From: Malacoraja senta
Lineage: Eukaryota
Assembly (NCBI GenBank): GCA_038087875.1
Contig: CM075995.1
Location: 4,280,001-4,344,000 of the forward strand
DNA: 64,000 nucleotides
Direction of reading: 5' to 3'
In this document: positions 761-54,733 of the stretch, piece after piece
Position numbering within the stretch: position 1 is the stretch's first letter
Layout of the letters: each line of letters opens with the position of its first letter
Notes under the pieces: model-generated
The model's database searches: none
What the model saw: only the letters and a program-made list of their open reading frames with translations
What the model was told of the DNA's origin: nothing
Made by a program: the position numbers and the translations under genes

Positions 761-1061
761 AATCAGGAATTATTTTGCCCTTTCAGGAGATATGAAGATG
801 AGCACTCATCAGCAATGATGATCAGTACCTATTTCACATCCCACTTTGCTTGAATAGAAACCTCCTCTGGTGTGTGTGGGCTCTCAGATCAGCTATGAGG
901 TTTCTTGCATTACACCAGAGACTGGACTCCAGAAAATACTTAATTGTGTTTAAGTGTTTTGAAACAGACTCAGGTTGTGAAAGATGTGAATAAATGCAAT
1001 CATTTTTATTTCAGTATCATGTTACTTAAATAATATGTTTAAGTTCTGCATATGTGCTAAC

Positions 1062-1162
1062 CTGATCAATAGGCAGCTCCACTTGTGTCAGATTATCTTC
1101 TTGAATTTCCATTGCATCCAAGGTCTCCCTCCTTTCCTCAAAAGCTTTGAACACGCAGTTTT
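1062..1162 (-). CDS. DCDC2: DCDC2 coding exon (human exon 8 equivalent)
   Basis: cccctttcccccag|AA AAC TGC GTG TTC AAA...ATT GAT CAG|gttagc, 101 bp, phase-1 start. Encodes (E)NCVFKAFEERRETLDAMEIQEDNLTQVELPIDQ versus human EGIFKAGAERSETRGAAEVQEDEDTQVEVPVDQ. Confidence 0.93.
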
Positions 1163-1301
1163 CTGGGGGAAAGGGGATAATGTTATTAAGACGGTGTTAA
1201 ATACAAGACAATGATACAACAGTGGCTACCAGTGGTGTGCAGCAAGAATTGCATCTCATCTCCAGCAATAAGTGCTAGCAAATACTTCACATCGCATGGG
1301 A

Positions 1302-1605
1302 GGCACGGTGATGCAGCGGTACATCTACTGCCTTACTGCGTCAGAGGCCCGGGTTCGATCCCGACTACGGGTGCTGTCTGTAGGAGTTTGTACGTTCTCC
1401 CTGTGACCTGTGTGGGTTTTCTTCAAGACCTTTGGTTTCCTCCCACACACCAAAGATGTACAGGTTTGTAGGTTAATTGGCTTGGTATAAAATGTTAAGA
1501 AAAATTATCCCTGGTGTGTGTAGGATAGTGTTAATTTGCGGGGATCGCTGGTCAGTGTGGAATCAGTCGGCTGTTTCCGTGCTGTATCTCGAAACTAAAC
1601 TAAAC
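1302..1605 (+). mobile_element. tRNA-derived V-SINE (HE1-like); further copies at ~2053-2378(-), 5003-5645(+, split by CR1), 13870-14176(+), 15773-15927(+), 16803-17112(+), 18689-18985(-), 21154-21467(-), 22573-22718(+), 25692-26515(+, split), 27660-27915(+), 38604-38911(+), 41982-42290(-), 42998-43160(-), 49720-49935(-), 52330-52620(-)
   Basis: A-box/B-box head (tggcgcagcggtagag...gggttcgatccc), conserved core gagtttgtacgttctccccgtgacc...ggtttcctcccac, CR1-like 3' end and (taaac)n tail. Confidence 0.88.
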
Positions 1606-1632
1606 ATTTTGCCATCACCAGTTTGTTAATGT

Positions 1633-1851
1633 GTAGGAAGGAACTGCAGATGCTGGTTTACAGCCAAGATAGACACAAAAAGCTGAAGTAACTCGGCGGG
1701 TCAGGCAGCATCTCTGGAGAAAACGAATAGGTGACATTTTGGGTCGAGACCCTTCTTTAGACTAATTTCTTCAGACTGGAGTCGAAACGCCACCTATTCC
1801 TTTTCTCCAGAGATGCTGCCTGACCCGCTGCGTTACTCCAGCATTTTATGT
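1633..1851. mobile_element. Short Penelope-derived fold-back insert; similar units at ~2889-3080, 3240-3400, 4145-4361, 18440-18670, 21673-21768, 23605-24050, 24795-24890, 25588-25680, 26745-27112, 41810-41908, 51720-52075, 61876-62000, 63680-63930
   Basis: Inverted copies of the Penelope terminal repeat, flanked here by 21-bp imperfect direct repeats at 1612-1632 and 1852-1872. Confidence 0.85.
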
Positions 1852-2521
1852 CCATTACCAGTTTGTTGATGTTTGAAACCATTCACAGTAAAGAGAATGG
1901 TTTGTTTAAGAAATCTTAATTGTGGACATAGTTATAAGTTTGTTGCTGTCTGACTCAGACGTTTACTTTGTAAACAGTTCTCCATTATTCCCCTGTATTA
2001 GCAGGAACGTTTATGTGGTGGTGCTTGACTGGGGAACGAGGGGGGAAGGGGATTTAGTTTAGTTTAGATTAGTTTAGAGATACAGCGCAGAAACAGGCAC
2101 TTCGGCCCACCAAGTTTATGCCGACCAGCGATCCCTGCACATTAACGCTACCCTACACACACTAGGGAGAATTGACAGTTATACCAAGCCAATTAACCTA
2201 CAAACCTGTACGTCTTTGGATTGTGGGAGGAAACCGATGATCTCGGAGAAAACCCACGCGGTCACGGGGAGAACGTACAAACTCCGTCCAGACAGCACCC
2301 GTATTCGGGATCGAACCAGGGTCTCCGGCGCCACAAGCGCTGTAAGGCAGCAACTCTACCGCTGAGCCACCATGCGCCCCTGGCTGAGGGCAGCACTTAA
2401 CTGGGAAATACACATTCAGGCTTGGATAGCAATCACAGCATCAACTAGCAATCACCATTTGGAATACCTCCTGGACTTTAAATAATGATCATGGTTTTGA
2501 TTGTTTAACCAGCACATCTAA

Positions 2522-3216
2522 AGGGCCTGTCCCACTTACGTGTCCTTGGTACGCAAATTACGCGACCTCGTGGTCGCGTTGAGGCGCACGGGCATCGTAT
2601 GGCCGCGCGGGGCCGGTCCCACTTAGAAGCGCGGAGGGGTATGTAGTTGTGAGCGACATCGCGCGGGGCTCCGAAATGTTTGTAGTGAACAAAGTCTTCG
2701 CGCGCCAACGGCCTGTCACGGAACTGACGGCCAAAGTGGAACAGGCCCAAGACCCTGGCGCGATGCAACATCTCACCTCCAACAGCAGCAGAAGCAGGCA
2801 AACGATCGCCGAGCTCGGCCTGGGGCTCACGGCCGTTGCGGTCCGGATCCGCCCCCAATTCTACTCCCAGGGCGGGGCCAAGAAAATTGAAGATTGACAC
2901 AAAATGCAGGAGTAACTCAGCGGGACCGGCAGCATCTCTGGAGAGAAGCAATGGATGACGTTTCGGGTCAAGACCCTTCTTTTCAGACTGAAGAAGAGTC
3001 TCGACACGAAACGTCACCCATTGCTTCTCTCCAGAGATGCTGCCGGTCTGGCTGAGTTACTCCAGCTTTGTGTCCATCTTCAAATGACGTCACGCACTCC
3101 AGACGGCTGTGCGTACGCATGTAATCGCGCCCGACCTTCGCGGGACCATCGCGGCTCAACGCGACCACGAGGTCGTGTAATTTGCGTGCCAAGGACACGT
3201 AAGTGGGACAGGCCCT
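2522..3216. mobile_element. PIF/Harbinger-type MITE (with a nested Penelope fold-back)
   Basis: TIRs of ~65 bp starting AGGGCCTGTCCCAC; TAA on both sides. Confidence 0.88.
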
Positions 3217-6099
3217 TAACTCGATAAACATCGAATAGAAACAAGTAACTGCAGATGCTGGTTTACAGAAAAGGACATAAAGTGCTGGACTAATTCCGTG
3301 GGTCAGGCAGCATCTTTGGAGAGCATGGATAGGTGACGTTTCGAGTCTGAAGGCTCCCCTTCCATATTCTCCTGAGTTACTTCAGCACTGTATGTCCTTT
3401 TAAGTTAAACATTGATCTTTTAAAATGGTTGGAATAAAATGGTGGGATTGAGAATGACTTCTCATTGAGTAACCTAAATGAGATTCTGGTCCATTCACCT
3501 CTGGCATTGAGAATTTTTCTTGAATAAAATTGGACAATTCAATCTTTAAGCAAATAATTACAAATTAATCGCAGGGTGCCCCCACTTTTTCTGTGCACTG
3601 TTGGCTCTACAGTTTGCTGAAGAGTCTCTTGCCCAGAGTAGGGGAATCGAGGACCAGAGGACATAGGCCTAAGGTGAAGGGGACAAGATTTAATACGAAT
3701 CTGAGGGGTAACTTTTTCACACAGAGGGTGGTGGGCGTATGGAACGGGCTGCCACAGGAGGTAGTTGAGGTAGGGACTATCAAAACGTTTAAGAAACGGT
3801 TTGACAGGTACATGGAGAGGACAGGTTTGGAGGGAGATGAGCCAAACGCAGGCAGGTGGGACTAGTGTAGGTGGGACATGTTGCCGGGTGTTGGTAAGTT
3901 GGGCCGAAAGGTCTGTTTCCACGCTGTATCACTCTATGACTCTATAGAACTGAGTTTCTAGCTCCAGGTTCCTTTATTAAATTTGCTCTGATGTAAAACT
4001 ATCTTGTGTGTTTTTTCCCCCAACCCCATGGAAAATATGCAAAAGGTGTACCGGTTTTCCAGAATTAATCTTAGGTTTCACTGCATTGCTTTCACCAGTC
4101 GACCCTATGTATCGGTATTAAATCCAACAAAGATCCCTACGAAGATAGACACAAAAAGCTGGAGTAACTTAGCGGCACAGGCAGCGTCTCTGGAGAGAAG
4201 GAATGGGTGACGTTTCAGGTCGAGACCCTTCATCAGTGAAACTCGAACCGAAACGTCACCCATTCTTTCGCTCCAGAGATGCTGCTTGTCCCGCAAAGTT
4301 ACCCCAGCTTTTTGTGTCTATCTTCGGTTTAAACCAGCATTTGCAGTTCATTCTTACACATACAAAGATCTCTACGAAGCAGCCAAAAAGAAGTATTGAT
4401 TTTCTCACTTAAAAGGTGAAGGGATAACATTTTTCTGAAGGGTGGTACTGATCGGATGGATGTTAACATCTTCAGGGGCAACACACAAACAGACAGGCCA
4501 ATTTATTTCTAAATAGGGTCACTGAGACTAGACTTACTGATCTAAAACAAAGGCTTTGTTATCAGAGACCCAGCACAATGTATACACTATCTGGCCGGGG
4601 GAACTCAATCAATTGGAAGCACAATAGACGCTTCAAGCCTGCAGGAGCAATATGTTCTACTTTCAAAAGAACCTGATAGTGTGGCTCAGACTAAAGCTGT
4701 GCCCAACAAACAGATTGCTGAAAATTGGGGGAGTTCAAGGTCAAAAAGAAACAATATCCATTCGGCAGTGGATAATCTGCACCAATGTGACTTGTTACAT
4801 GAAACAGAAAGATTTGCAAATAAATATAAACCAAATATTTGGATTGAGGCAGACATCTTTGTTGTCTGTATATGTCAAGTGTTCGCTGAATAAACTCACT
4901 AAGTGATCGAGAGCAATTGTGTAAACAGTGCTAAAATACAGGCGAGCTTAAATATTCCTCACGCACTAAGAGCAGATGGAATGCATCCAATAGCCTTTAA
5001 ATGTGGTGGTGCAGCGGTAGAGTTGCTGCCTTACAGCGCCAGAGACCCGGGTTCCATCCTGACTGCAGGTGATGTCTGTACGGAATTTGTGCATTCTCCC
5101 CGTGGTTTTCTCCGAGATCTTCGCTTTCCTCTCACACTCCTACAAAACCATGAGAGGAATAGATCGGGTAGATGCACAGTGTCTCTTGCCCAGAGTAGGG
5201 GAATCGAGGACCAAGGTGAAGGGGAATAGATTTAATAGGAATCTGAGGGGTAACTTTTTCACACAAAGGGTGGCGGGTGTATGGAACAAGCTACCAGAGG
5301 AGGACGTTGAGGCTGGGACTATCCCATCATTTAAGAAACAGTTAGACAGGTACATGGATAGGACAGGTCTGGAGGGATGTGGGCCAAAGGGCAGGCAAGT
5401 GAGACAAGTGTAACTGGAACATTGTTGGCCGGTGTGGGCAAGTTGGGCTGAAGGGCCTGTTTCCACACTGTATCACTCTATGACACTATGACCCCATAGA
5501 CGTACAGGCTTGTAGGTTAATTGGCTTGGTATAACTGTAAATTGTGTATGTAGTATGTAGTTAGTGTGCGGGGATCGCTGGTCGGCACGGACTCGGTGGG
5601 CCGAAGGGCCTGTTTCCGCGCTGTATCTTTAAACTAAACTAAAGTTAACCGAGGGGGTTTATGGAGGGTGCTGCAGAGATGTTTTCAGTTTGTTATGCAC
5701 ACGATGATTCTGTAGAATCTGCCATGGCTCGTTCCCGCTCCAGAGGATCGTGGATTTGAGCCAGCTACAAGTCCCTATTGACGACACAAACACTATTGCT
5801 CACAGAGTGCCACTTCACACAGTGCCAGGACTCACTCACATACACCTATTCACCTATTCACCTGTGACAGCTGTCACAGCACCCACCCATCCACTACCTT
5901 CCATACCACACCCACACATGCATGTGGACACACACACACTATCCCCTCTCTCACCAATTTCTACAGATGCACCACAGAAAGCTTTTTATCGGGATTCATC
6001 ACAGCTTGGTTTGGGAACAGCTCCATCCAGGACCGCAAGAAATTGCAGCGAATTGTGGACGCAGCCCAGACCATCACACAAACCAAACTCCCTTCTATT

Positions 6100-7347
6100 G
6101 AGTAGGAATGAACTGCAGATGCTGGTTCAAACCAAAGATAGACACAAAAAGCTGGAGTAACTCAGCGGGACAGGCAGGATCTCTGAAGAGAAGGAATGGG
6201 TGACGTTTCGGGTTGAGACCTTTCTTCAGACTGGTTAGGGATAAAGGAAACGAGAGATATAGACGGTGATGTGGAGAGATAAAGAACAATGAATGCGTAG
6301 TGTCGGAGAGCAGGAGGAATCACAGATGGGAGCAGCGAGAGAGGATGTTGCAGAACCTTCGTCGGAGAGAGGAGGAGAACTTTGCAATGTGTATGACGGA
6401 AATGTAGATGCTGGTTTAAGCTGAAGATAGACACAAAAAGCTGGAGTAACTCAGCGGGACAGGCAGTATCTCTGGAGAAGAAATGGGTGACGTTCCTCCG
6501 AAATTTCAGCCACCTCCAACGGGATCCCACCACTAGCCATATTTTCCCATCTCCACCCCTTTCCACCTTCCGCAGAGACCGTTCCCTCCTCAACTCCCTG
6601 GTTAACTCATCCCTTCCCACCCAAACCACCTCCTCCCCAGGTACCTTCCCCTGCAACCACAGGAGATGTAACACCTGTCGCTATACCTCCTCCCTCGACT
6701 CTGTCCAGGGACCCCGACAGTCCTTTCAGGTAAGGCAGAGGTCCACTTGCACCTCCTCCAACCTCATCTACTATATCCGTTGCTCAAGATGTGGACTCTT
6801 ATACAGTGGCGAGACCAAACGCAGAATGGGCGATCGTTTCGCGGAACATCTTCGCTCAGCCCGCCTGAACCTACCTGACCTCCTGGTTGCTGGACACTTT
6901 AATTCTCCTTCCCATTCCTACACAGATCTTTCTGTCCTAGGTCTCCTCCATTGTCAGAGTTAGGCTAAACGCAAATTGGAGGAATAGCATCTCATATTTC
7001 GCTTGGGCAGCTTACAGCCCAGTGGTATGAATATTGATTTCTCTCACTTCAGGTAGCCCTGGCATTCCCTCTCTCTCTATCCCTCCCCCACCCAAGTCGC
7101 ACTAGCTTCTCATTTTCACCATACAAACAGCTAACAATGGCCTGTTTCGTCTATCATCATAACTTTTTTGCATATCTTTCATTCACTGTTCTTTATCTCT
7201 CCACATCATCATCTATATCTCTCGTTTCCCTTGTCCCTAACCAGCCTGAAGAAGGGTCTCGACCCGAAACATCACTCATTCCTTCTCTCCAGAGATGCTG
7301 CCTGTCCCGCTGAGTTACTCCAGCTTTTTGTGTCTATCTTTAGTGGT
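6100..7347 (+). mobile_element. Penelope-like element 3' part (GIY-YIG endonuclease) with inverted pseudo-LTR copies
   Basis: ORF 6487-6963 contains CNTC...TCTSSNLIYYIRCSRCGLLYSGETKRRMGDRFAEH. Inverted terminal-repeat copies lie at 6100-6490 and a direct copy at 7140-7340. Confidence 0.88.
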
Positions 7348-25729: not shown

Positions 25730-26408
25730 AAGGCTGTCTCACGAGTCTGCGGTCATTGGCGGAGAAACAGGAAGAATCTACCGCTCCTGGGCGCCATAGA
25801 CCGCGCACTCGGTCAAACGCCACCGCCGGGGCCGTGCGGCGTTGTTCCCACGGTGCTAAAATAAAACCAACACTGTTCAAAAATATGTTCCTACCGCACA
25901 GCTGCCGCCAGTGAGGCACGAGTGCGGCACGGCCGCCGCCACAGCCGCCGCCAGTGAGGCACGAGCACCGTGCGTCGAACTTGCACCGTCACAGCCGCCG
26001 CTTGTGAGGCGCGTGTGCGGCACGGCCGCCGCCGCTAGTGAGGCACGACCGCCGCCAGTGAGGCACGTGTGCGGCACGGCCGCCGCCACAGCCACCGCCA
26101 GTGAGGCACGACCGCCGCCAGTGAGGCGCGTGTGCGGCACGGCCACCGCCACAGCCACCGCCAGTGAGGCACGGCCGCCGCCACAGCCACCGCCAGTGAG
26201 GCACGACCGCCGCCAGTGAGGCGCGTGTGCGGCACTGCTGCAGCCACAGCCCCGCGATCTGAAAGCCGAAACAGCAAGCTCGTGGAACCGGCCGTACTTA
26301 GCCCCCCGCGCAGCATCTGTGCGGCGCTCTCGTGGTTGCCGTGCGGTCCCCTCTTCCGGCGATGCCGCGCTTCACCGCCAACGACCGCAATCCCGTGGGA
26401 CAGAGCCT
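25730..26408. mobile_element. Harbinger-type MITE with an internal GC-rich tandem array, inserted in a SINE
   Basis: Termini aggctgtctcacg and cgtgggacagagcct; TTA duplicated; splits the SINE sequence gttgctgcctta|cagcgccagag. Array of gccgccagtgaggcacg variants at 25903-26250. Confidence 0.75.
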
Positions 26409-28321
26409 TTATAGCGCCAGAGACCTGACTATGGGTGATGTCTGTAGAGAGTCTGTACGTTCTCCCCGTGACCCCGTGGGTTTCCTCCAGTGTTCCAGTT
26501 TCCACCCACACTCAAAAGCAAAGATTATAGAGCAGAGCAAGATGCGCCACCTCTGCGGAAAAAGCGTAGTATGACATGGGTGATTGTTGACGCCATTTTA
26601 CCGGACTGCAATTTACATAATAATAATAATATTTACAATAATATTAACTAAATATGAGAAGTGATAGATGCTATATACAACACTGTTCCCTACAACACCA
26701 AAGATGACACCAAAGATGATAGAGCGGATCAATCCCCGCATACTGGAGATGCTGGAGAAACTCAGCGCGTGCAGCAGCATCTATGGAGCGAAGGAAATAG
26801 GCAACGTTTCGGGCCAAAACCCTTCTTCAGACTGATAGGGGGTGGGGAGAAGAAAGGAAAAAAGGAAAAAAGGCGGAGGAGGAGCCCTCCCAATTCTGCT
26901 AGCCCTTGCTGTCCCCTCCCCTTCATCAGCCCTCTGGTTGTCTCCTCTCCTCCCCCAGCCCTCGGGCTCCTCCTCCGCCTTTTTTCCTTTTTTCCTTTCT
27001 TCTCCCCACCCCCTATCAGTCTGAAGAAGGGTTTCGGCCCGAAACGTTGCCTATTTCCTTCGCTTCATAGATGCTGCTGCACCCGCTGAGTTTCTCCAGC
27101 ATGTTTGTGTACCTATGGATGATCTATCTCTCCCTCCTAACCCCATTCTCCTGCCTTCTTCTCATAACCTCTGACACCCATACTAATCAAGAATCTATCT
27201 ATCTCTGCCTTAAAAATATCCACTGACTTGGCCTCCAGAGCCTTCTGTGGCAAATTCACCACCCTCTAAATAAATTTCTCTTCATTCTCCAGAGATGCTG
27301 ACTGACCTGCTGAGTTACTTCAGCAATCTATGTCGTTTTGAGATCATTACAAGAATTTTATGACGTGGAAGACCATTTCAGCTATTATGACTCCATCAGC
27401 ATTTGGGAGCGTGCATTTCAATGCCTTTTCTCCACATGCTTTCAAATTTCTCTCTTATCTATTTGCCTCTTTATTTTTCCAGTCGATTCTGTTTGGTGTT
27501 TCTTGCAGGACACTGCAGCTTGTGCCTGGGAACATGCACTGAAATGCCAGGAGACTCGCCCCATTCTCCTGGAACTATTAGCTGATGGCTTTTTGCGTAC
27601 ATCTCGTAATGACGAGACACTGATGGTGGTGCTTTGCCATCAGCCACTAACCACCAGTCGATCCTGACTACGGGTGCTGCGAGTTTGTACGTTCTCCACG
27701 TGACCTGCGTGGGCTTTCCCCGAGATCTTCGGTTTCCGCCCATGTTCCAAAGATGTACAGGTTTGTAGGTTACTTGGCTTGGTGTAAGTGTATATTGTCC
27801 GCAGTGTGTGCAGGATAGTGTTTGTCTGCGGGGATCGCTGGTTGGCGCGGGCTTGGTGGGCCGAAGGGCCTGTTTCCGCGCTATATCTCTAAACTAAACT
27901 ACACTAAACTAAACATGCTGGTACTAACCAGCACCAAGTGATATCATGGCTGCACTTAGTAAAGGGATGGAGACCACTAATATTCTGACATGCCAGGACA
28001 TGTATGGGCAGAAAAGGCATGGAAACAGCCATGCCACTTCACTGGCGGTGACCCCAAAGCCCAGATGCAAGAGGTGGTATCAGATATGGTGGTATCAACT
28101 ATGACTCTTTTGCTAAGCATAGGGGAATTGGAGAAAATTGGGTGAAACATAGAAACATTCTTGGTTTCATAGAAACATAGAAACATAGAAAATAGGTGCA
28201 GGAGTAGGCCATTCGGCCCTTCGAGCCTGCACCGCCATTCAATATGATCATGGCTGATCATCCAACTCAGTATCCTGTACCTGCCTTCTCTCCATACCTT
28301 CATTCTCTTCAGTCCTTGAAC

Positions 28322-30610: not shown

Positions 30611-30844
30611 TAGGATGGAACCCATTATCTGTCCCATCTTTAATTTCCTCCAAATGCACGAACGACGTTAATAACTGCAACTCCATTAGTTTCTGATTAG
30701 CAATAGTTTGGAGTTACCGGATGTGTCAGGAAGTGAATATTGAGTCACGGTAGTGCAGGTTAAATTCCTTATGGCCTCTGTGGGAGGGGGCACAATACAA
30801 GCATTACATGCATCTTATCGGGGACCGTAAAGAACATAACTCAC

Positions 30845-31035
30845 CGTTTTCAGGGCCAAGCATCGGGCTTCCATGGCCATTTTTGTCGGGCTTCACTTGG
30901 CCGGGTTTTGCATGGAACACGGATTCTTCTTTGGCCAGGACTTGTTCCTTCTTTCCTTTTCCTCTTTGGGGATTGTGACAGCATCAGTGGATAAACTTCA
31001 CTTTCGATCCCTGAGGAACGGATTTGCCGATCTCC
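30845..31035 (-). CDS. DCDC2: DCDC2 coding exon (human exon 7 equivalent), with an apparent +1 frameshift
   Basis: aacag|GGA GAT CGG CAA...GAA AAC G|gtgagt, 191 bp. Reads GDRQIRSSGIESEVYPLMLSQSPKRK, then after dropping one base GKKEQVLAKEESVFHAKPGQVKPDKNGHGSPMLGPEN (human NDRHSKS...PQPLKRKGKKE). The flanking exon phases require a length of 3n+1; the observed length is 3n+2. Confidence 0.85.
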
Positions 31036-31495
31036 CTGTTAATCCAATAAATTCAGCTGTTATCAGGCAACTGAACCATCCAACCAACTAGAGAGCTGTG
31101 CTGAGCTACTATCTACCTCATGGAGACCCTCGGACTATCTTTGAACAGACTTTACTGGGCTTTATCTTGCACTAAACATCATTCACATTATTCCCTTCAT
31201 CATGAATCTGTACATTGTGAATGGCTCGATTGTAATCATGCGTTGTCTTTCCGCTGACTGGTACACGTAAGAATAAATACACGAATAAACTAAACTAAAC
31301 TAAATTGAATTGAACTAAGCTAAACTAAATGCAGGTGAGCAGTACTTCACCTGTGGTTCTGCGCTAATTGTTAACGGGGAATTTCTGTCCATCTTGACAT
31401 TAATTGTTAAAGTGCGGCGTCACCTGATGGTCAGACCACTTACGGTCGAACCCTCGTCAGTGGTTACGAGGACTGTCGCGTGACGTCATGTGTTA

Positions 31496-34368: not shown

Positions 34369-37300
34369 ATGCATGACACCACACAAAAGAACCTAGGAGG
34401 AGTCTCATTTTGTAGTTGGAATATAAGAGGCATTAATGAACCTATCAAAAGGGGTAAGATATTAGCTCAGCTAAAAATGTATAATTCTGACATTACCTTC
34501 CTACAAGAAACACACCTAAAACCTCAGGACCAAGTTAGGCTGAGGGCGAAATGGATAGGTCAAACATACCACTCTTCATTCACTTCAAAATCTAGAGGCA
34601 CGTCAATTATCATAAGAAAAGGTATACCATTTAAAGCAAAGAATATTATAACAGATATAGAAGGGAGATACTTAATAGTTAATGGAGAAATCCATGACAC
34701 TCCACTTACTTTGGTAAATATATATGCCCCTAACTTTGATAACCCCCACTTTTTCAATAAAATCTTTAATATAATTGCAGAGTCAAACTATCAAAATGTT
34801 ATAATAGGCGGAGACTTTAATTGTGTTTTAGACCCGTACTTAGATAAATCAAGTCAAAAACAGAGAGGGAATATGAAATCGAAAACTGGGGAACTCCTCA
34901 ATACCTACATAAACAACACTAATATAGCAGATGTTTGGAGAATTGTGAACCCAACTGGCAGGGAATATTCGTTTTACTCAATGGTACATAAGACATACTC
35001 ACGTATAGACTACTTTCTGCTGGATACAAAATTAATCCCCCAAACATCTAATGCAATATATCATACAAATTCAATTTCAGACCATTCTCCACTAACTTTC
35101 TTTTTAAAACTGGAAGGATTGTCTAAGAATAATTCATTCTGGAGATTTAACTCTCAAATTTTAAAAGATCCACAAGCGAGTATATATTTAAAAGAACAAA
35201 TGGAGGTCTTTTTTCAAACAAATGATACTTCAGATATATCGCCTACTTTACTTTGGGAATCTTTTAAAGCATACATTAGGGGTATTATAATTTCATATCA
35301 AGCTTTTCAAAATAAAAAGAATAAGAATGAACAAAGACAGTTAGAAGAACTTATTAGACAAATGGATATAGATAATGCTAAAGATCCAACAATAGATAAA
35401 CATAATAAAATAATAATTTTAAAATTTAAATTAAATAAATTATTATCTGCCAAACTTATAAGACTTTTTCAAATTACAAAACAAGAGCACTTTGAATTTG
35501 GGGATAAACCGCATAAACTTTTGGCTCGCCAGCTAAAAAAACGAGAAAAGGAACATACTATACCAAAGATCAAATCAGATAAAGGGGAATTATTAACAAC
35601 ACCGAAGGATATTAATAAAAGATTTGCGCAATTTTACGAGAATTTGTATACATCTAAAACGATAATTGATTCCAATAATATCACAAAGTTCTTGGATACC
35701 TGTAATCTTCCAAAGTTAGAGCTGAAGGAACAAGAGGAACTGGGTGCACAAATCTCAATTAAGGAATTAGAAGATACAATAAACTCACTAAAAAATGGAA
35801 AAACACCAGGCCCTGATGGATTTACTAATGAATTTTATAAAAACTTTTATGAAAAAATAATACCAAGATTACAAAAAATGTACCAATACGCTTTTAAAAA
35901 ACGAATACTACCTGATACATTAGCGGAATCAACGATTACATTAATACCTAAGAAAAATAAGGATTTAGAAGATCCTGGCTCATATAGAGCTATAGCATTG
36001 TTAAACACAGATCAAAAAATATTAGCGAAAACATTAGCCAGAAGATTAAGTAAATACATTAGTAAATTAATAAACCCAGATCAGACAGGGTTTATCCCTA
36101 AGAGATACTCTTCTAATAATATGAGACGTCTACTCAACATAATGCACTCACACAAATCTGAAGATCAAGAATTATCAATTATTTCGCTGGATGCTGAAAA
36201 AGCATTTGATCAAGTAGAATGGAATTATATGGATAAAGTATTACAAAAATTTCAACTGGGAGAGAATTTTATTTTATGGATTAAGTTACTATATAACAAA
36301 CCTACAGCTAGAATACTTACTAATAACATATTATCCTCGAAATTTCAACTATCAAGGGGAAATAGACAAGGATGCTCATTATCACCACAGCTGTTTGCTC
36401 TCATTATTGAACCGCTAGCAGAAAAAATTAGAATACACCCTGATATTCATGGATATAATACTAAAGACTCATATAATAAAATATCTTTATACGCGGATGA
36501 TATATTATTGTATATCACAAAACCTCAAATCACTATACCAAATATATTAAATTTAATTGAAGACTTCGGATCTTTTTCTGGATATAGAATAAATTGGAAT
36601 AAAAGTGAAATTATGTCAATAAAACCGAAAGATTCAACACATCTTTTAAAATTCCCTTTTAAAATAGCTACAGAAAAATTTAAATATTTGGGAATCGAAA
36701 TTACCAGAGCATATCAAGGTATGCTCAGGGCAAATTTTGACCCCCTACTTAATAAACTGAATACATTAATTAAATTCTGGAAAACGCTTCCGATGTCTTT
36801 AATAGGCCGAATAAACGCAATAAAAATGATCTTTTTACCACAAATTTTATACCTATTTCAATCAATTCCTATATACTTACCTAAGAAGTTTTTTAAAAAA
36901 CTCGACTCAGATATCACTAATTTTATATGGGACTATAAATCACATAGAATACAAAAAACCCATCTGAATAAATCTAAAGTATTGGGGGGTCTAGCACTAC
37001 CCAATTTTATGTATTATTATTGGTCAGTAAATATTAAAAACATGATTCAACTGATGGATAACTCCGCCCAGCAAGTAGACTGGATTGTAATGGAGAAAGA
37101 GGATTGCTCCTCTAGAAACATTGGAGCGATCCTCCTCTCTCCAATGAAATTGAATAACATAAACTATAATAAGAACCCAATTATTCATAGTACAATCCGT
37201 ATTTGGAAACAAATAAAACAAAATTTAAAATTAAGAAACTTATCACTTTTATTACCTATAGTCAATAACCCTTCGTTTAGTCCTTCTATTATAGATAAAG

Positions 37301-38160
37301 CTTATACACAATGGGATAGACTAGGAATTAAAACGCTTGGTGACTTGTATGAAACTGGAAAATTACTTTCATTTCAACAATTACAAATAAAATATAAACT
37401 CGGAAATAATCAATATTTTAAATACTTTCAAATATGCGACTATTTGAAAAAATATATAAAAGATCATCATAATAACCCAGCAGATGTACTGGACGAGGCA
37501 ATGCAGACAAAAGCGGAATCAGCAAACTTAATATCATATTTGTACAATATTATCTTAAATGTACAAATACCATCTACGGAGGGTATCAGAAGAGACTGGG
37601 AACAAGAGTTAGCCATTAAAATTTCAAAGGAAAGTTGGAATGAATACTTATTAAAAGTACATAAATGCTCGATTAATGTAAGACACACTTTAATACAATT
37701 TAAAATTTTACATAGATTATATTATTCGAAAACTAAAATTCATAAAATTTTCCCAAACGTATCATCTATTTGTGATAAATGTCAATCCCAAGAAGCAACT
37801 ATAGCGCACTCATTTGTCTTCTGTACAAAAATTCAAAAATTTTGGAATGAAATTTTTGAAATCTTTACAAAGTTATTTAAAACAAGACTGATACCCAAAG
37901 CAGAATGGATTATCTTCGGAATAACGGAAGATGATCCAGAACTAAATGTGTTTCAAAAGAAATTAATGGATTATGGGTTAATAACTGGAAAAAAGCTAAT
38001 TCTAAAATTTTGGAAGAAGGCTCCAATACCAACTATAAATATGTGGATTTCAAATATGTTTGAAACACTACACCTTGAAGAGATAAGACTCCTCCTAGCA
38101 GGTAAACCAGATCACTTCCACCTGACGTGGTCTGCATTTATAGAATTATTACAAACATAG
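34369..38160 (+). CDS. L1 ORF2p (APE endonuclease, reverse transcriptase, C-terminal CCHC), 1263 aa
   Basis: Endonuclease motifs SWNIRG, LQETH, GGDFN, SRIDY and SDH. RT motifs KTPGPDG, LDAEKAFD, RQGCSLSP, YADD and KYLG. C-terminal CDKC...H...C. No stops or frameshifts. Confidence 0.96.
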   Translation: MHDTTQKNLGGVSFCSWNIRGINEPIKRGKILAQLKMYNSDITFLQETHLKPQDQVRLRAKWIGQTYHSSFTSKSRGTSIIIRKGIPFKAKNIITDIEGRYLIVNGEIHDTPLTLVNIYAPNFDNPHFFNKIFNIIAESNYQNVIIGGDFNCVLDPYLDKSSQKQRGNMKSKTGELLNTYINNTNIADVWRIVNPTGREYSFYSMVHKTYSRIDYFLLDTKLIPQTSNAIYHTNSISDHSPLTFFLKLEGLSKNNSFWRFNSQILKDPQASIYLKEQMEVFFQTNDTSDISPTLLWESFKAYIRGIIISYQAFQNKKNKNEQRQLEELIRQMDIDNAKDPTIDKHNKIIILKFKLNKLLSAKLIRLFQITKQEHFEFGDKPHKLLARQLKKREKEHTIPKIKSDKGELLTTPKDINKRFAQFYENLYTSKTIIDSNNITKFLDTCNLPKLELKEQEELGAQISIKELEDTINSLKNGKTPGPDGFTNEFYKNFYEKIIPRLQKMYQYAFKKRILPDTLAESTITLIPKKNKDLEDPGSYRAIALLNTDQKILAKTLARRLSKYISKLINPDQTGFIPKRYSSNNMRRLLNIMHSHKSEDQELSIISLDAEKAFDQVEWNYMDKVLQKFQLGENFILWIKLLYNKPTARILTNNILSSKFQLSRGNRQGCSLSPQLFALIIEPLAEKIRIHPDIHGYNTKDSYNKISLYADDILLYITKPQITIPNILNLIEDFGSFSGYRINWNKSEIMSIKPKDSTHLLKFPFKIATEKFKYLGIEITRAYQGMLRANFDPLLNKLNTLIKFWKTLPMSLIGRINAIKMIFLPQILYLFQSIPIYLPKKFFKKLDSDITNFIWDYKSHRIQKTHLNKSKVLGGLALPNFMYYYWSVNIKNMIQLMDNSAQQVDWIVMEKEDCSSRNIGAILLSPMKLNNINYNKNPIIHSTIRIWKQIKQNLKLRNLSLLLPIVNNPSFSPSIIDKAYTQWDRLGIKTLGDLYETGKLLSFQQLQIKYKLGNNQYFKYFQICDYLKKYIKDHHNNPADVLDEAMQTKAESANLISYLYNIILNVQIPSTEGIRRDWEQELAIKISKESWNEYLLKVHKCSINVRHTLIQFKILHRLYYSKTKIHKIFPNVSSICDKCQSQEATIAHSFVFCTKIQKFWNEIFEIFTKLFKTRLIPKAEWIIFGITEDDPELNVFQKKLMDYGLITGKKLILKFWKKAPIPTINMWISNMFETLHLEEIRLLLAGKPDHFHLTWSAFIELLQT

Positions 38161-38593: not shown

Positions 38594-39978
38594 CAGAAGA
38601 ATAGGTGGTGCAGCGGTAGAGTTGCTGCCTTACAGCACCAGAGACCCGGGTTCAATCCTGGCTACGGGTGCTGTCTGTACGGAGTTTGTGCGTTCTCCAC
38701 ATGACCTGTGTGGGTTTTCTCCGGGAGCTCCGGTTTCCTCCCACACTCCAAAGACGTACAGGTTTGTAGGTTAATTGTCCGGTAAAAATTGTAACTTGCC
38801 CTTAGTGTGTGTAAGATAGTGTTAGTGTATGGGGATCGCTGGTCGGCGCGGATTCGGTGGGCCGAAATGCCTGTTTCTCCGCTGTATCTCTGAACTAAAC
38901 TAAACTAAACTCAAGATTCAATATTGCAGAGGTCTAGGAAAAGGTTCATTTTTTAAACAGTATTAAGATCAATTCTGCAGTGTGTTTGTGATAAGTGATT
39001 GTTTTCCATTACTATCAGTTCAAGAAACTTTGGCTGTAACCTCGCCTGCCCAAGTAGATTAAAGTCAAGAAAAGTAATTCACTTTCACTTTCTTTGGGTT
39101 TATTCCTTTCCTCCTGTTTAACATTGCCAGTAAATAAACTTGCGGTAAAACTTGTCGTTAATAAGAAAAAATCTGAAATATTCAAAAATCACTCCTCACT
39201 CCTAAGGAAATATGCATATTACATAATATCCTATCGTCCATCTATAATTTTCAGGAAAAAATAATCTTAAATAATAAGAGTGATACCGCCAGAATTTTAA
39301 AAACTAATAACTTTAACAAACCTGGAGGATGAAGAGTAATACAGAAAGAGGTGATGGAAATAAAGTATGTTATAGAGTCAGTCATGGAGTCATATAGTGT
39401 GGAAACAGGCCCTTCGACCCAACTTGCCAAAACTGACCAACATGTCCCATCTACACTAGTCTCTCTTGTCTCCGTTTGGCCCATATCCCTCAAAACATGT
39501 CCTATCAATGTACCTCTAATTGTGTCTCAAACATTGCAATAGTCTCTGCGTCAACTACCTCCTCTGGCAGTTTGTTGCATACACCCAACGCACTTTTTGT
39601 GAAAAAATTACCCATCATCTTTATTACCAAAACTAAGATCTTGACCGCTTTTGACTTACTGTTTGGAGATTTACGAGAAAACGCCCCCACTTACGGCCGT
39701 CATTTTTGGCCACCTCGCTCAGAGCCCCCCCCCCCCTGCCGGACTGGACCAGAGTCTTTTTCCCATCGGTGAAAAATCAGAGAGATATTCATGTTTTTTA
39801 AAAATTCGCCATTCTCTCTGCTGCCCCCGCTGGTGGCAGGGGGGAGAGACTATAAAACCTGGAAGTGTCGTGGCTCACTCAGTCTCTGCCAGACAGATAA
39901 AGCGAGAGGGTCATGGCTCTCTGAGCTGCGAATAACGCTGAATGCATGTCTACTCCACGGTGAGTCCCCGGGATGTGG

Positions 39979-40662
39979 TTTTCAGAAAATGTGTTTGTTG
40001 CTTGCAAAGTGTTTGCCCAATTGGCATTTTGGCTTTTTAAAGGGCTTTCAGAAAATGTGTTTTGTTTGCTTGCAAAGTGTTTGCCCAATTGGCTTTTTGG
40101 CTTTTTAAAGGGCTTTCAGAAAATGTGTTTTGTTGGCTTGCAAAGTGTTTGCCCAATTGGCTTTTTGGCTTTTCAAAGGGCTTTCAGAAAATGTGTTTTG
40201 TTGGCTTGCAAAGTGTTTACCCAATTGGCTTTTTGGCTTTTTAAAGGGCTTTCAGAAAATGTGTTTTGTTGGCTTGCAAAGTGTTTGCCCAATTGGCTTT
40301 TTGGCTTTTCAAAGGGCTTTCAGGAAATATGTTTTGTTGGCTTGCAAAGTGTTTGCCCAATTGGCTTTTTGGATTTTTAAATGGCTTTCAGAAAATGTGA
40401 TTTGTTGGCTTGCAAAGTGTTTCCCAAATTGGCTTTATGGCTTTTTAAAGGGCTTTCAGAAAATGTATTTTGTTGGCTTGCAAAGTGTTTGCCCAATTGG
40501 CTTTTTGGCTTTTTAAAGGGCTTTCAGAAAATGTGTTTTGTTGGCTTGCAAAGTGTTTGCCCAATTGGCTTTTTGGCTTTTTAAAGGGCTTTCAGAAAAT
40601 GTGTTTTGTTGGCTTGCAAAGTGTTTGCCCAATTGGCTTGGCTTTTAAAGGGTTTGCTTGCA
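39979..40662. repeat. 68-bp minisatellite, about 10 copies, inside the Helitron
   Basis: Unit tttcagaaaatgtgttttgttggcttgcaaagtgtttgcccaattggctttttggctttttaaagggc repeated head to tail with few substitutions. Confidence 0.95.
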
Positions 40663-41157
40663 ACAGTTTTCGGATGGATAAAGCGTGAATAAACATTTTA
40701 TTAGATCAGGACTGTGTTTAATTTCAAAATTGACGTTCATTCTGTGATTTTCGCTTAGTTGCAAGATGGTGCCCATGATGTCATTATTTCTTAAAATTTG
40801 ACCGCTGAATCTCTCTATATTAAAATTGTCTCTTTTTATCAACAGGAAATAGTCATCAAGAGGCAGTGAGCAGCAGAACACAACAAGAGACACAACAAGA
40901 AAGAACTTAATAATTCTCATCTTTAACATTTAAATTGTTCTTATATTTTAAGTCATTCACATTTTAAACTTTAATAAATCCTTTTTGCACTTTTGATGCC
41001 TGTGTGTTCTTCATCACAATGGAAACCTAATGGGCAGAAATGGCTGCTCTGTGGGAGAGCCACTAAGAGTGCATGGGGGAGGGCTTTGGGGAGATGCACT
41101 GAATGTGTGGGGGGGAGGGGAATGGCAAGGAGCAGAGTGGGGGGGTGAAAGGAGAAG

Positions 41158-41440
41158 GGGTGACTGAGTGAACTGCCAGCGTACCAGGCGTGAGTGACTG
41201 CACTGCCAGCCCATGAGCCGTGAGTAAGTGAACTACCAGCCCACCAGCCATAAGTGACTGAACTGCCAGTCCAATAATCCATTCAGTCCACCCTCTCCCC
41301 CTTCTCTCTCACAGTCTGTCACCTGTTTTGGGCAGAATTTCTGGCAGTTTCTCAGCTGCCAGCCTGCCAGGTCCGAGTGACTGTACTGCCAGGCCTCAGT
41401 GACTGAGCTGCCTGGCCTCAGTGACTGAGCTGCCAGCCCA
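41158..41440. repeat. Degenerate ~25-30-bp tandem motif (gtgactgaactgccagcc) inside the Helitron
   Basis: About seven variants of gtgactg[a/c/t]actgccag are visible between 41160 and 41440. Confidence 0.7.
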
Positions 41441-43689
41441 AGAATCTATTCGGCCCACAATGTCCATACTAGCCCTCTGGAAACCAGTACCTTCGGCCCA
41501 CAACACCCATACTAGCGCAACAGAAAGCCCCCCCCCCCCCACTGGCCAGCTATATTGGAATTGGTGGAGAGGTGGAATATTGCATTGGGTGACCAGCCCT
41601 CCTGTGTGATGCTGGGACCCAACGGGTCCCACTTAGTCTAGTATTCATATTAAAAAAATTCCCCTTCACCTAAAACCTATGCCCTCTGGGTCTTGATTCC
41701 CCTACTCTGGGCAAGAGACTGTGAATTTCCCGATCTATTCTTCTCATGATTTTATACACCTCTCTAAAGATCATTCATCATCCTCCTGCATGCCAGGGAA
41801 TAGAGTTCCAGTCTGAAGAACGGTCTCGATCCAAAACGACACATATTCCTTTTCTCCAGGGATGCTGCCTGTCCCGCTGAGTTACTCCAGCTTTTTGTGT
41901 CTATCTTGCTCAACCTCTCTCCATAGCTCAGACCCGAGGCCTGGCAACATCCTTGTAAATCTTCTCTGAACCCTTTCTAATGTTTAGTTCAGAGATACAG
42001 CGTGGAAACAGGCCCTTTGGCCCACCGAGGCCGCACTAACCAGTGATCCCCGCACATTAACAGTATCCTACACACACTAGGGACAATTGATGTACACTTA
42101 TACCAAGCCAATTAACCTACAAAACAGTATATCTTTGGAGTGTGGGAGGAAACCAGAGCACCTGGAGAAAATCCAAGGAGCGAGCATACAAACTCCGTAC
42201 GTACAGCACCCGTGGTCAGGATCGAACCTAGGTCTCAGGTATTGTATGCGCTGGAAGGCAGCAACTCTACCGCTGCGCCACTGTGCCACCCATTGTTGAT
42301 CAGAATTTTTTCCAAGGCTATACTTGTGAGTGCATAATCAAAATGAATGCTCCAAAACACGCATCTTAATTTGCCAGACTTATATAACTAACTCCGATTG
42401 CTGTTACTCAGTGATCGTAGTGGACTAAAAACCTCACACCACCTTAAGCAATGCTCAGTGAAAATGAGCTCTACTTCGAAGGAGATTTGAAATCCATCTC
42501 TTTTACCACATGTTTAACAACCTATCTTAATATCTCTTTCTGAGACTAAGTGCCACATTTTATGTGATAACACCCCTGAAGCACCTTGCGATGTTTTACT
42601 ATATCAAAGCTACAAATGCAAGATGTTATTCTTGCCAAAAAAAACATGCCGTAGGCAACGAAGAAGTTCTTACAGACTTTGCTAATCAGCAGGTTTTATG
42701 GCTCTACCCCTTTCAGAAAACCTATCGTCAAGAGTGGGATGTGGATCATGCAAACTCATACAGCAGTGCCAGTTTTATGTCGGCATTCAAGGTTGGCCGT
42801 CAGAATTCTATCCATCTTGTGTGCGCAACAAATAGGGAAATCTGAGCTTGGAGATTGGAAAAGAATGCTAATTATTGGGAAGAGCAGAATTCATGGACAC
42901 CTCACAGTAAATTTTCCAAATGGTCCAAGGAGCAGCTTCATACCCAGTTATGCAAATCATCTCTGTTGACATGCTCCACGTAAAACAATTTGCATAGTGT
43001 ACCTCTTTGGAGTGTGGGAGGAAACCAGAGCAGCCAGAGAAAACCCACGCAGGTCAGAGGGAGAACATACAAACTCCGTACAGACAGCACCTGAAGTCAG
43101 GATCGAACCTGGGTCTCTGGCGCTGTAAGGCAGCAGCACCACTCCTGTGCCACCGTGCCGCCATTATCCTGCTTCAAAGCATAGTGCTTTAAATCAGCAC
43201 ATTAGCCTGTAACAGAAGTCACCAGCAGTCTGTACTGGGTAAGGACAACAATTATCCTGCTCCAAAAGGCATGTAAGGATCAGTCGTGTATTTTACAAAG
43301 AAAAAGGGTCCGACTCAGTGTCAAATTTGGGGATGTTAGCATTTCATTTCCAGATTAACTTATTAAATATTTCCAAATTCCCAGACTATGACAGTAGAAT
43401 ATGTATTCTCACTCTTACAATACAAGTCGTACTCCAACATCGTACGGTCAAAGTCGTACAGGTGTGTGGGTCACTTGGCTTTGGAAAGATGGTAAATTGT
43501 CCCAAGTGTGTAGGATAGTGTTAGTGTCCAGGGATCGCTGGTCGGCACAGACCCGGTGGACCGAAGGGCCTGTTTCCACGCTGTATCTCTAAACTCAACC
43601 AAATTAAAGTAAAAGTTGGGCCATATGTTGCTTTTGAGCATTGGTGTCCTGTGTTTTAATAAGGCATATAAGGCATGCTCAGACCTTAA

Positions 43690-53836: not shown

Positions 53837-53891
53837 ATTTTCTTTATTCTTCTTGGAGCCTGGGATTGGAGGAAGTGATGCAGCCTTGGAT
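53837..53891 (-). CDS. DCDC2: DCDC2 coding exon (human exon 6 equivalent)
   Basis: tttctatgtttcttag|A TCC AAG GCT GCA TCA CTT CCT CCA ATC CCA GGC TCC AAG AAG AAT AAA GAA AAT|gtgagt, 55 bp. Encodes SKAASLPPIPGSKKNKEN versus human QKASSLPPIVGSRKSKGSG. Phase fits the preceding exon and it ends in phase 0. Confidence 0.92.
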
Positions 53892-54733
53892 CTAAGAAAC
53901 ATAGAAATAAACTAATGATCGTTGTGCTATTTTAGCGTCGAAATTGGAGTCAAACGAGGCCATTCGACTCACTGTGTTCACATTACCCCTGCTTTAAGGT
54001 GCTTAGGGTCATTGGGTCACAACAGCGTGAAAACAGGCTCTTCGGCTCAATTTGCCCACACAGGTCAAGACGTCCCAGCTACACTAGTCCCACCTGCCTG
54101 CGTTTGGTCTAAATCCATCCAAACCTGTCCTATCCATGTACCTATCTAACTGTTTCTTAAATATTGGGATAGCCCCAGTCCCATCTGCCTCCTCTAGCAG
54201 CTGGTTCCATACACACCGCTACCCTTTGTCTGAAAAAGTTACCCCTCGGATTCCTATTAAATCCTTTCCCCTTCACCTTCAACCTATGCCCTCTAGTCCT
54301 CGATTCCCCAACTCTGGGCAATGATTGTGCATCTACCAGATATATCAAACATAGAAACATAGAAAATAGGTGCAGGTGTAGGCCAGGTGTAACACAACAA
54401 TATAATCATGGCTGATCATCCAAAATCAGTACCCCGTTCCTGCTTTTTCCCCATATCCCTTGATTCTGTTAGCCCTAAGAGCTATATCCAACTCCCTCTT
54501 GAAAACATCCAGTGAGTTGGCCTCCACTGCCTTCTGTGGCAGAGAATTCCACAGATTCACAACTCTCTGGGTGAAAACGTGTTTCCTCATCTCAGTCTAA
54601 ATGGCCTTGAGGGGAAACTCGTTAAATAAGTAAGGAAGAATAGAAAGTTATGATGCCCTCTGACTGAATTGAGCTGGGAGGAGGACCATGAAGACCAACA
54701 TGAACTTATTTGCCAAAATGTCTCTATTTGAGC

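Follow-up and report, generated by a model that had tools for sequence, protein, structure and literature searches.

A 64,000-nucleotide (nt) stretch of Malacoraja senta DNA (GenBank assembly GCA_038087875.1, contig CM075995.1; G000:C19:4280001-4344000 in our numbering), referred to here as the window, contains a 2-kb non-autonomous Helitron that lies in an intron of a DCDC2-type gene and whose interior resembles a small spliced transcription unit. We consider it probable (roughly 85%) that this apparent mini-gene represents the leftover control anatomy of a transposase gene, with predicted splice sites, in an element made non-autonomous by a deletion of ~6 kb. The original prediction for this locus had identified a TC start at 39618, TATAAAA at 39851, an initiator (Inr) at 39881, a splice donor at 39960, an acceptor at 40845 and AATAAA at 40973, and all of these motifs are found where it placed them. 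To explain them, it proposed either a portable cassette for a non-coding RNA (ncRNA) or micropeptide or what an internal deletion had left of the gene of the parent Helitron itself; our comparisons favor the latter. While the locus itself would thus be an ordinary transposon relic, its value lies in the family comparison, which maps how the transposase gene of a vertebrate Helitron is likely to be divided natively into exons and introns, i.e., a TATA/ETS/Inr promoter, a non-coding exon 1, a single coding exon, an intron in the 3' untranslated region (UTR) and a polyA signal, as well as a possible second promoter or exon. Such a map makes Helitron transcription testable at precise junctions.

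The element is a canonical non-autonomous Helitron of the HLE1 type and belongs to a high-copy family. Copies share the 5' start TCTATATTAC and end with a hairpin followed by CTAG; in the window copy, the hairpin has an 8-bp stem located 10 nt before the end (-8.2 kcal/mol, equalled in 5 of 200 shuffles). The last base of the 5' flank is A in 53 of 57 distinct flanks of family copies, the first base of the 3' flank is T in 50 of 51, and comparison of the two flanks of the window copy identified no target site duplication, consistent with the ends and the A^T target originally proposed. These features match the canonical HLE1 hallmarks of TC, hairpin plus CTRR, and A^T (PMC11417382, PMC4778049). 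Because the flanks are A^T and the ends are TC and CTAG, rather than short terminal inverted repeats with T^T insertion, an HLE2 or Helentron identity was ruled out. Searches of the 1.94-Gb genome with the two ends yielded 3423 (5' end) and 2659 (3' end) first-look candidates, and all of the best 40 for each end, which were scored, were strong matches. Twelve of the best 3'-end matches (L035, L038, L040, L041, L043, L047-L049, L052-L054, and L060) have an identical right flank, suggesting that these were multiplied within a larger repeated unit and not by separate insertions. In its five other copies in the window, the older host repeat split by this insertion reads A^G instead of A^T at the corresponding site, so that the T at the target of the present copy needs one prior substitution. 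These A^G sites had been overlooked in the original prediction, as had an AATAAA at 40688, an acceptor TAG at 40758 and an ATG at 39913.

An element that encodes Rep and a PIF1 helicase (RepHel) and that has the same ends as the window Helitron exists in the genome. This full-length relative (7,880 bp; G000:C1:146744430-146752309, L184-L185) carries all modules in order and aligns to nt 1-1168 and nt 1167-2024 of the window element, with 76% identity in the 5' module and 92% in the right part. Its 5' part consists of TATA, Inr, a first donor (nt 310), a minisatellite, an ETS/YY1-like array, a second donor (1013) and (GT)n; its middle part consists of an acceptor (2269) located 17 nt before the ATG and a frameshifted Rep-PIF1 open reading frame (ORF) with a stop at 6811; and its 3' part consists of a donor position (6826), an acceptor (6905), AATAAA (7038) and the end (7880). 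In longer copies as well, the left and right modules of the window element align separately, up to several kb apart, and the gap between them encodes PIF1 (PF05970, E 8e-62) and Rep (PF14214). The window copy corresponds to the first ~0.9 kb and the last ~1 kb of the parent, from which ~nt 880-6841 (~5.96 kb) are gone, and alignment to the 7,880-bp parent identified no RepHel remnant in it. These alignments indicate that the Helitron lost its transposase gene when ~6 kb were deleted from the interior of a parent encoding RepHel.

Several other candidate parents were rejected. Open frames of 1669-1766 amino acids were found in long-ORF Helitrons identified by a Pfam search, which belong to a related sister family with other ends and were used only as an outgroup. 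This family (G000:C3619:51176, C4719:112731, and C1:40977736; L131-L138) encodes Rep and PIF1, lies among head-to-tail Helitron arrays and possibly was recently active; some of its copies show a 3'-UTR intron-like GTAAAT...CAG after the stop. Two 7-kb copies, L091 (G000:C4:41289904-41296886) and L092, contain a nested 4.9-kb retroelement with a reverse transcriptase (PF00078) and a tyrosine recombinase (PF00589), which we take to be DIRS-like, and the 6.5-kb interior of L103 consists mostly of other insertions. The insertion point of the retroelement in L091 and L092 is only a few nt away from the deletion end-point of the window copy, which may reflect a hotspot or shared history, and related inserts are present at other positions in L105 and L109; a tree of the right module did not place the junction copies firmly within or outside the lineage that carries the retroelement.

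The deletion junction has three exact matches genome-wide (0 for a control). One of the two sister copies is interrupted by ~10 kb of other sequence, in the other, which lies beside an assembly gap, TATA and exon 1 were not seen, and the window copy is the only uninterrupted one of the three. These counts bear directly on the proposed portable cassette, which would have been selected and amplified as a unit, as they compare with ~3,400 first-look candidates for the 5' end and ~2,700 for the 3' end. In addition, the 30 best 5'-end loci include 12 further copies that are short and complete, all of which are without the acceptor/polyA module, and this module was not seen within the fetched stretch of 20 sister-family loci. 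With a junction found only three times and short copies that do not have the acceptor and polyA signal, this is not a portable cassette family. The proposed peptides fared no better. The predicted splice in the window copy joins only the ORFs MHVYSTEIVIKRQ and MSTPRK, and the third ATG (39913) encodes MAL*. At the start codons of these two ORFs, most of the 46 lineage copies have ACG (31 at 39942 and 30 at 39946), and only 6 have ATG at each position; both ATGs thus appear to be products of CpG decay. With no conserved start codon or ORF, the element appears to encode no micropeptide, and an Rfam scan of 39000-42300 gave no matches at E<=1. In favor of a cassette, sister lineages do carry an ATG at the MSTPRK (second) position (26 of 89 rows overall), and an ORF-less derivative (L253) keeps the promoter, exon 1, 3'-UTR intron and polyA signal, with the same breakpoint in L243, L248 and L251, which indicates that such mini-genes arise more than once. 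Overall, the cassette is largely refuted by the copy counts and is the least probable of the explanations considered here.

With regard to the 5' module, conservation across 89 aligned copies points to a functional origin. Most of these copies fall into three lineages (46, 22, and 16 copies, with 5 rows unassigned) that are 74-87% identical. The three lineage majorities agree at all 28 motif positions (TATA, ETS, Inr, and donor), as compared to 193 of 292 other positions (Fisher p 1.8e-5). In the window copy, the TATA box lies 30 nt from the Inr A, GTGAGT is kept at the donor in 69 of the 89 aligned modules, and a 22-mer spanning this donor has 205 exact matches in the genome; at least 205 exact promoter-exon-donor copies could thus start new transcripts. 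The composite of TATA, Inr and GTRAGT occurs once in the element and is missing from the other 62 kb of the window on both strands. The names ETS, YY1 and Inr refer to consensus motifs. The invariance across lineages suggests that this module is likely a real promoter and non-coding first exon of the transposase gene, and most simply it would reflect that, in master lineages, the transposase promoter and the splicing of the 5' UTR were under selection.

The promoter and first exon could also derive from a host gene by capture, as known for HelibatN3 of bats, and two observations speak for such an origin, i.e., capture is established for bat Helitrons (PMC4224331), and the promoter module is unmatched in the long-ORF relative family, the helicase of which is 81% identical. 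By contrast, the module lies within 310 nt of the 5' end and is co-oriented with RepHel in full-length copies, it is common to all three lineages, the best 40 scored matches of each 5'-end search are dispersed repeat copies, and every segment of the window element maps to the RepHel parent. We thus regard host capture as unlikely among the 40 best matches scored per search, although a very old capture may have escaped them.

A number of further observations concern the 5' module and its relatives. Each unit of the 68-bp minisatellite contains the palindrome CCAATTGG (10 CCAAT/ATTGG sites were counted) and also holds AG sites after T-runs. In L184 (7270-7450), ETS-like and YY1-like motifs form a ~30-bp tandem array, after which comes the second donor, CTATG/GTGAGT; only the start of this array (40760-40785) is present in the window, and it continues in longer copies. 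The array and second donor may serve the RepHel gene as an additional promoter that has no TATA box or as an exon of its 5' UTR, and the second tandem unit in L144 starts at this array. The AG at 40758 was rejected as the acceptor of the parent's intron 1, as it belongs to the ETS/YY1-like repeat and is GG in several of 44 copies. In a high-copy sister Helitron family (L193 2184-3897; L223-L242), the TATA/ETS/Inr/exon/donor module is found twice in tandem, with a different minisatellite after each.

The 3' module appears to derive from the other end of the same gene. In close relatives, the acceptor at 40845 (CAG) lies ~92 nt past the RepHel stop, with no donor between, and more diverged copies have GAG/GTAAAT 15 nt past the stop. 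GAG/GTAAAT and GAG/ATAAAT have 156 and 159 exact matches in the genome, respectively. In nine of 12 fetched GT copies, the donor is followed by this CAG acceptor at a distance of 68-91 nt; of the other three, two are truncated or interrupted and one is without the G. The acceptor pattern is intact in 52 of 54 tabulated copies, with the remaining two mis-caught by the pattern, and the acceptor in L091 and L092 is AAG. In a helicase tree covering 35 of 57 rows (22 of 38 AT rows were dropped), the four basal family rows are GT, and a single 100/100 clade contains every one of the 16 AT rows along with 5 GT rows; GTAAAT also follows the stop in 2 of 5 labelled outgroup rows. Older lineages carry two AATAAA, the first of which is AATAAT in the window lineage (40909) and the second AATGAA in another. 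It is likely, from these comparisons, that the acceptor closed a ~79-nt 3'-UTR intron of the parent.

A different possibility is that the motifs arose by chance within repetitive sequence, as T-rich sequence yields many AG sites (47 are listed between 39990 and 40973) and the 3' motifs are no more conserved than their neighbours. The 5' motifs are, by contrast, invariant across lineages, with a TATA-Inr spacing of 28-30 nt that is held despite indels, older copies pair the acceptor with a GT donor at an intron-like distance, and the composite is missing from the other 62 kb of the window; chance therefore seems highly improbable as an explanation. The test suggested in the original prediction, of whether the motifs are more conserved than neighbouring sites, was thus positive for the 5' motifs only.

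A number of findings weigh against the derivation from a transposase gene. When all 8 clusters were included, among them singletons and a 4-copy donor-less cluster, the invariant positions dropped to 15 of 27 motif positions versus 87 of 303 others (p 0.005), and the donor, which is missing in four small clusters, was no longer invariant. The interval used for the ETS motif was chosen after viewing the alignment, individual positions depend on one another, and similarity was the criterion by which copies were selected. The 3' module background is as conserved as the motifs in it, and the helicase tree implies four GT/AT changes and does not establish a single origin of AT. Finally, an intact RepHel ORF of the window family was not found; the partner element with the same ends that had been anticipated is represented by a best parent in which this ORF is frameshifted.

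Under the deletion model, the parent mRNA would have been spliced at the exon 1 donor, at the acceptor before the ATG and at a 3'-UTR intron. The 3'-UTR donor, presumably ancestrally GT, would then have become AT in the window lineage, leaving the acceptor orphaned. A ~6-kb deletion would have joined promoter, exon 1 and donor to this acceptor and the polyA signal, so that the start of the parent's intron 1 and the end of its last intron are now joined and the apparent 886-nt intron (39960-40845) is a chimera. A family RepHel acting in trans would have moved the deleted copy to an A^T site of the DCDC2-type intron, where the copy would have drifted neutrally since, most likely silent or weakly transcribed. 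Genomic probes for intron-less copies (3'-UTR intron, exon 1-terminal exon, and exon 1-coding exon) gave 0 matches each, which is weak evidence, as RNAs of DNA transposons are seldom retrocopied.

The deletion origin is also compatible with an active antisense mini-gene, in which TATA and Inr would drive a spliced, polyadenylated ncRNA that could interfere with DCDC2 transcription; this alternative differs in current activity only. If RNA polymerase II (Pol II) were to fire here, a plausible splice from 39959 to 40846 would produce an ncRNA of ~230 nt in antisense orientation to the host intron, an outcome we consider unlikely. TATA, Inr, donor, acceptor and AATAAA are all intact in the window copy, its right module differs by only ~2% from the corresponding tree node, it alone among the junction copies is uninterrupted, and a Helitron-borne promoter and donor can give chimeric transcripts (PMC4778049). 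However, the ETS site is mutated, CpGs are depleted (16 in the 5' module versus 21 and 22 in two sisters), as would be expected for a methylated copy, and selection on the window copy is not evident. A rival acceptor and a polyA signal also lie upstream and would compete with 40845 if the copy were transcribed; the acceptor at 40845 has 13 of 20 pyrimidines, a 78-nt AG-free zone and CAG/G, and the rival at 40758 has 15 of 20 pyrimidines and a 47-nt AG-free zone, with the intronic AATAAA at 40688. If expressed, the window copy would be a clean case of an antisense RNA gene born from one deletion. More speculatively, and with little probability, the family may repeatedly yield ORF-less spliced mini-genes from its own UTR architecture. 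The GT-to-AT loss would have left a strong orphan acceptor, to which exon 1 could splice past the RepHel ORF, giving a self-limiting non-coding isoform; the window copy would be the DNA version of this isoform, transcribed antisense in DCDC2, and hundreds of promoter-exon-donor copies would act as exon traps.

A literature search with partial coverage, to which repeat databases were external, found no account of this Helitron family and no description of UTR introns for a vertebrate RepHel gene. Non-autonomous HLE1/Helitron1 elements resemble the window element in TC, hairpin plus CTRR, A^T, and ends common with a Rep/Helicase element (PMC11417382); unlike these, the window element keeps a complete predicted Pol II signal set from its parent's gene. 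In Caenorhabditis, non-autonomous pieces have been reported to carry a Helitron's own promoter to new sites (PMC6927752, PMC6765114), where fragments of C. elegans Helitron1_CE and Helitron-acquired heat shock elements (HSEs) disperse transposase promoter elements as in the window family. Factor binding, transcription and rewiring of host genes were shown for the C. elegans elements (PMC6927752, PMC6765114), whereas the window family, known from sequence alone, has a TATA/ETS/Inr core promoter and predicted UTR introns. Bat HelibatN3 carries the NUBPL promoter, exon 1 and donor (PMC4224331, PMC4778049) and thus likewise represents a mobile promoter, first exon and donor in a vertebrate Helitron that could act as an exon trap if sense in an intron; the HelibatN3 module is host-captured, whereas the window module is likely the element's own, and the window copy lies antisense to its host gene, with an acceptor and a polyA signal of its own. 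In Xenopus laevis, the HLE1 element Heli1Xen1 also has a presumed promoter at the 5' end of its RepHel locus (PMC12001565). This is supported by chromatin immunoprecipitation and low-coverage RNA evidence, as compared to the purely genomic data for the window family, and UTR introns such as those predicted here are not mentioned in the accessible portion of that report.

Table 1. Features of the Helitron and its host intron (window coordinates)
Feature	Position	Strand	Basis
DCDC2-type exon upstream of host intron	53837..53893	-	related-protein alignment
DCDC2-type exon downstream of host intron	30843..31038	-	related-protein alignment
Older host repeat split by the insertion, resumes at 41642	39495..39617		repeat comparison within window
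Non-autonomous Helitron, HLE1-type; internal deletion derivative of a ~7.9-kb RepHel family	39618..41641	+	ends, flanks, parent alignment
5' terminus, TC start; window TCTTTATTACC, family TCTATATTACT	39618..39650	+	comparison of copies
TATA box (TATAAAA), likely promoter of parent RepHel	39851..39857	+	TATAAA in 87/89 aligned copies; invariant in 3 lineages
ETS-like site; family CCGGAAGT, window CTGGAAGT (apparent CpG decay)	39859..39866	+	intact in 54/89 copies
Inr-like TCAGTCT, A at 39881	39879..39885	+	28-30 nt from TATA in 77/89 copies
Predicted non-coding exon 1 of parent transposase mRNA, 79 nt	39881..39959	+	copy alignment
Predicted splice donor of parent intron 1, ACG/GTGAGT	39960..39965	+	GT in 42/46 lineage copies; invariant in 3 lineage majorities
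68-bp minisatellite, 9.7 copies, within parent intron 1	39980..40639	+	tandem-repeat scan; unit and copy number vary among copies
Left-module remainder: AATAAA 40688, rival acceptor TAG 40758, ~25 nt of ETS/YY1-like array	40640..40785	+	copy comparison
Deletion junction, 2-nt TT microhomology; whole RepHel ORF missing	40784..40786	+	copy alignments
Acceptor of the parent's likely 3'-UTR intron (~79 nt), with the 3' part of that intron	40786..40845	+	copy alignments
Parent's likely terminal 3'-UTR exon, AATAAA 40973-40978	40846..40995	+	copy alignment; end position estimated
Subterminal 30-bp and 22-bp tandem repeats	41160..41436	+	tandem-repeat scan
3' hairpin (41613-41631) and CTAG end (41641)	41613..41641	+	fold and family ends

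The host is a doublecortin-domain gene on the minus strand, with exons at 62965-62816, 53893-53837, 31038-30843 and 1163-1062. The first of these matches DCX and is closest to the solved DCDC2 domain (E 1.3e-15, as compared to 0.033 for doublecortin); the other three were placed by related proteins. The gene appears to be DCDC2-type, a label that does not separate DCDC2 from its paralogues. As minus-strand exons of this gene lie on both sides, the Helitron is intronic and antisense to its host, as had been proposed; Helitron insertions in introns are common (PMC6544945). In the exon at 30843-31038, homologue alignment gives two overlapping blocks in different frames, which may reflect a frameshift or an assembly error. 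Elsewhere in the window, an inverted repeat (26749-27102) with 139 nt of 98% complementarity and arms 76 nt apart adjoins a GC-rich tandem array (25897-26255), and a 3-kb stretch (35001-38000) has a GC content of 29%, far under that of the rest of the window.

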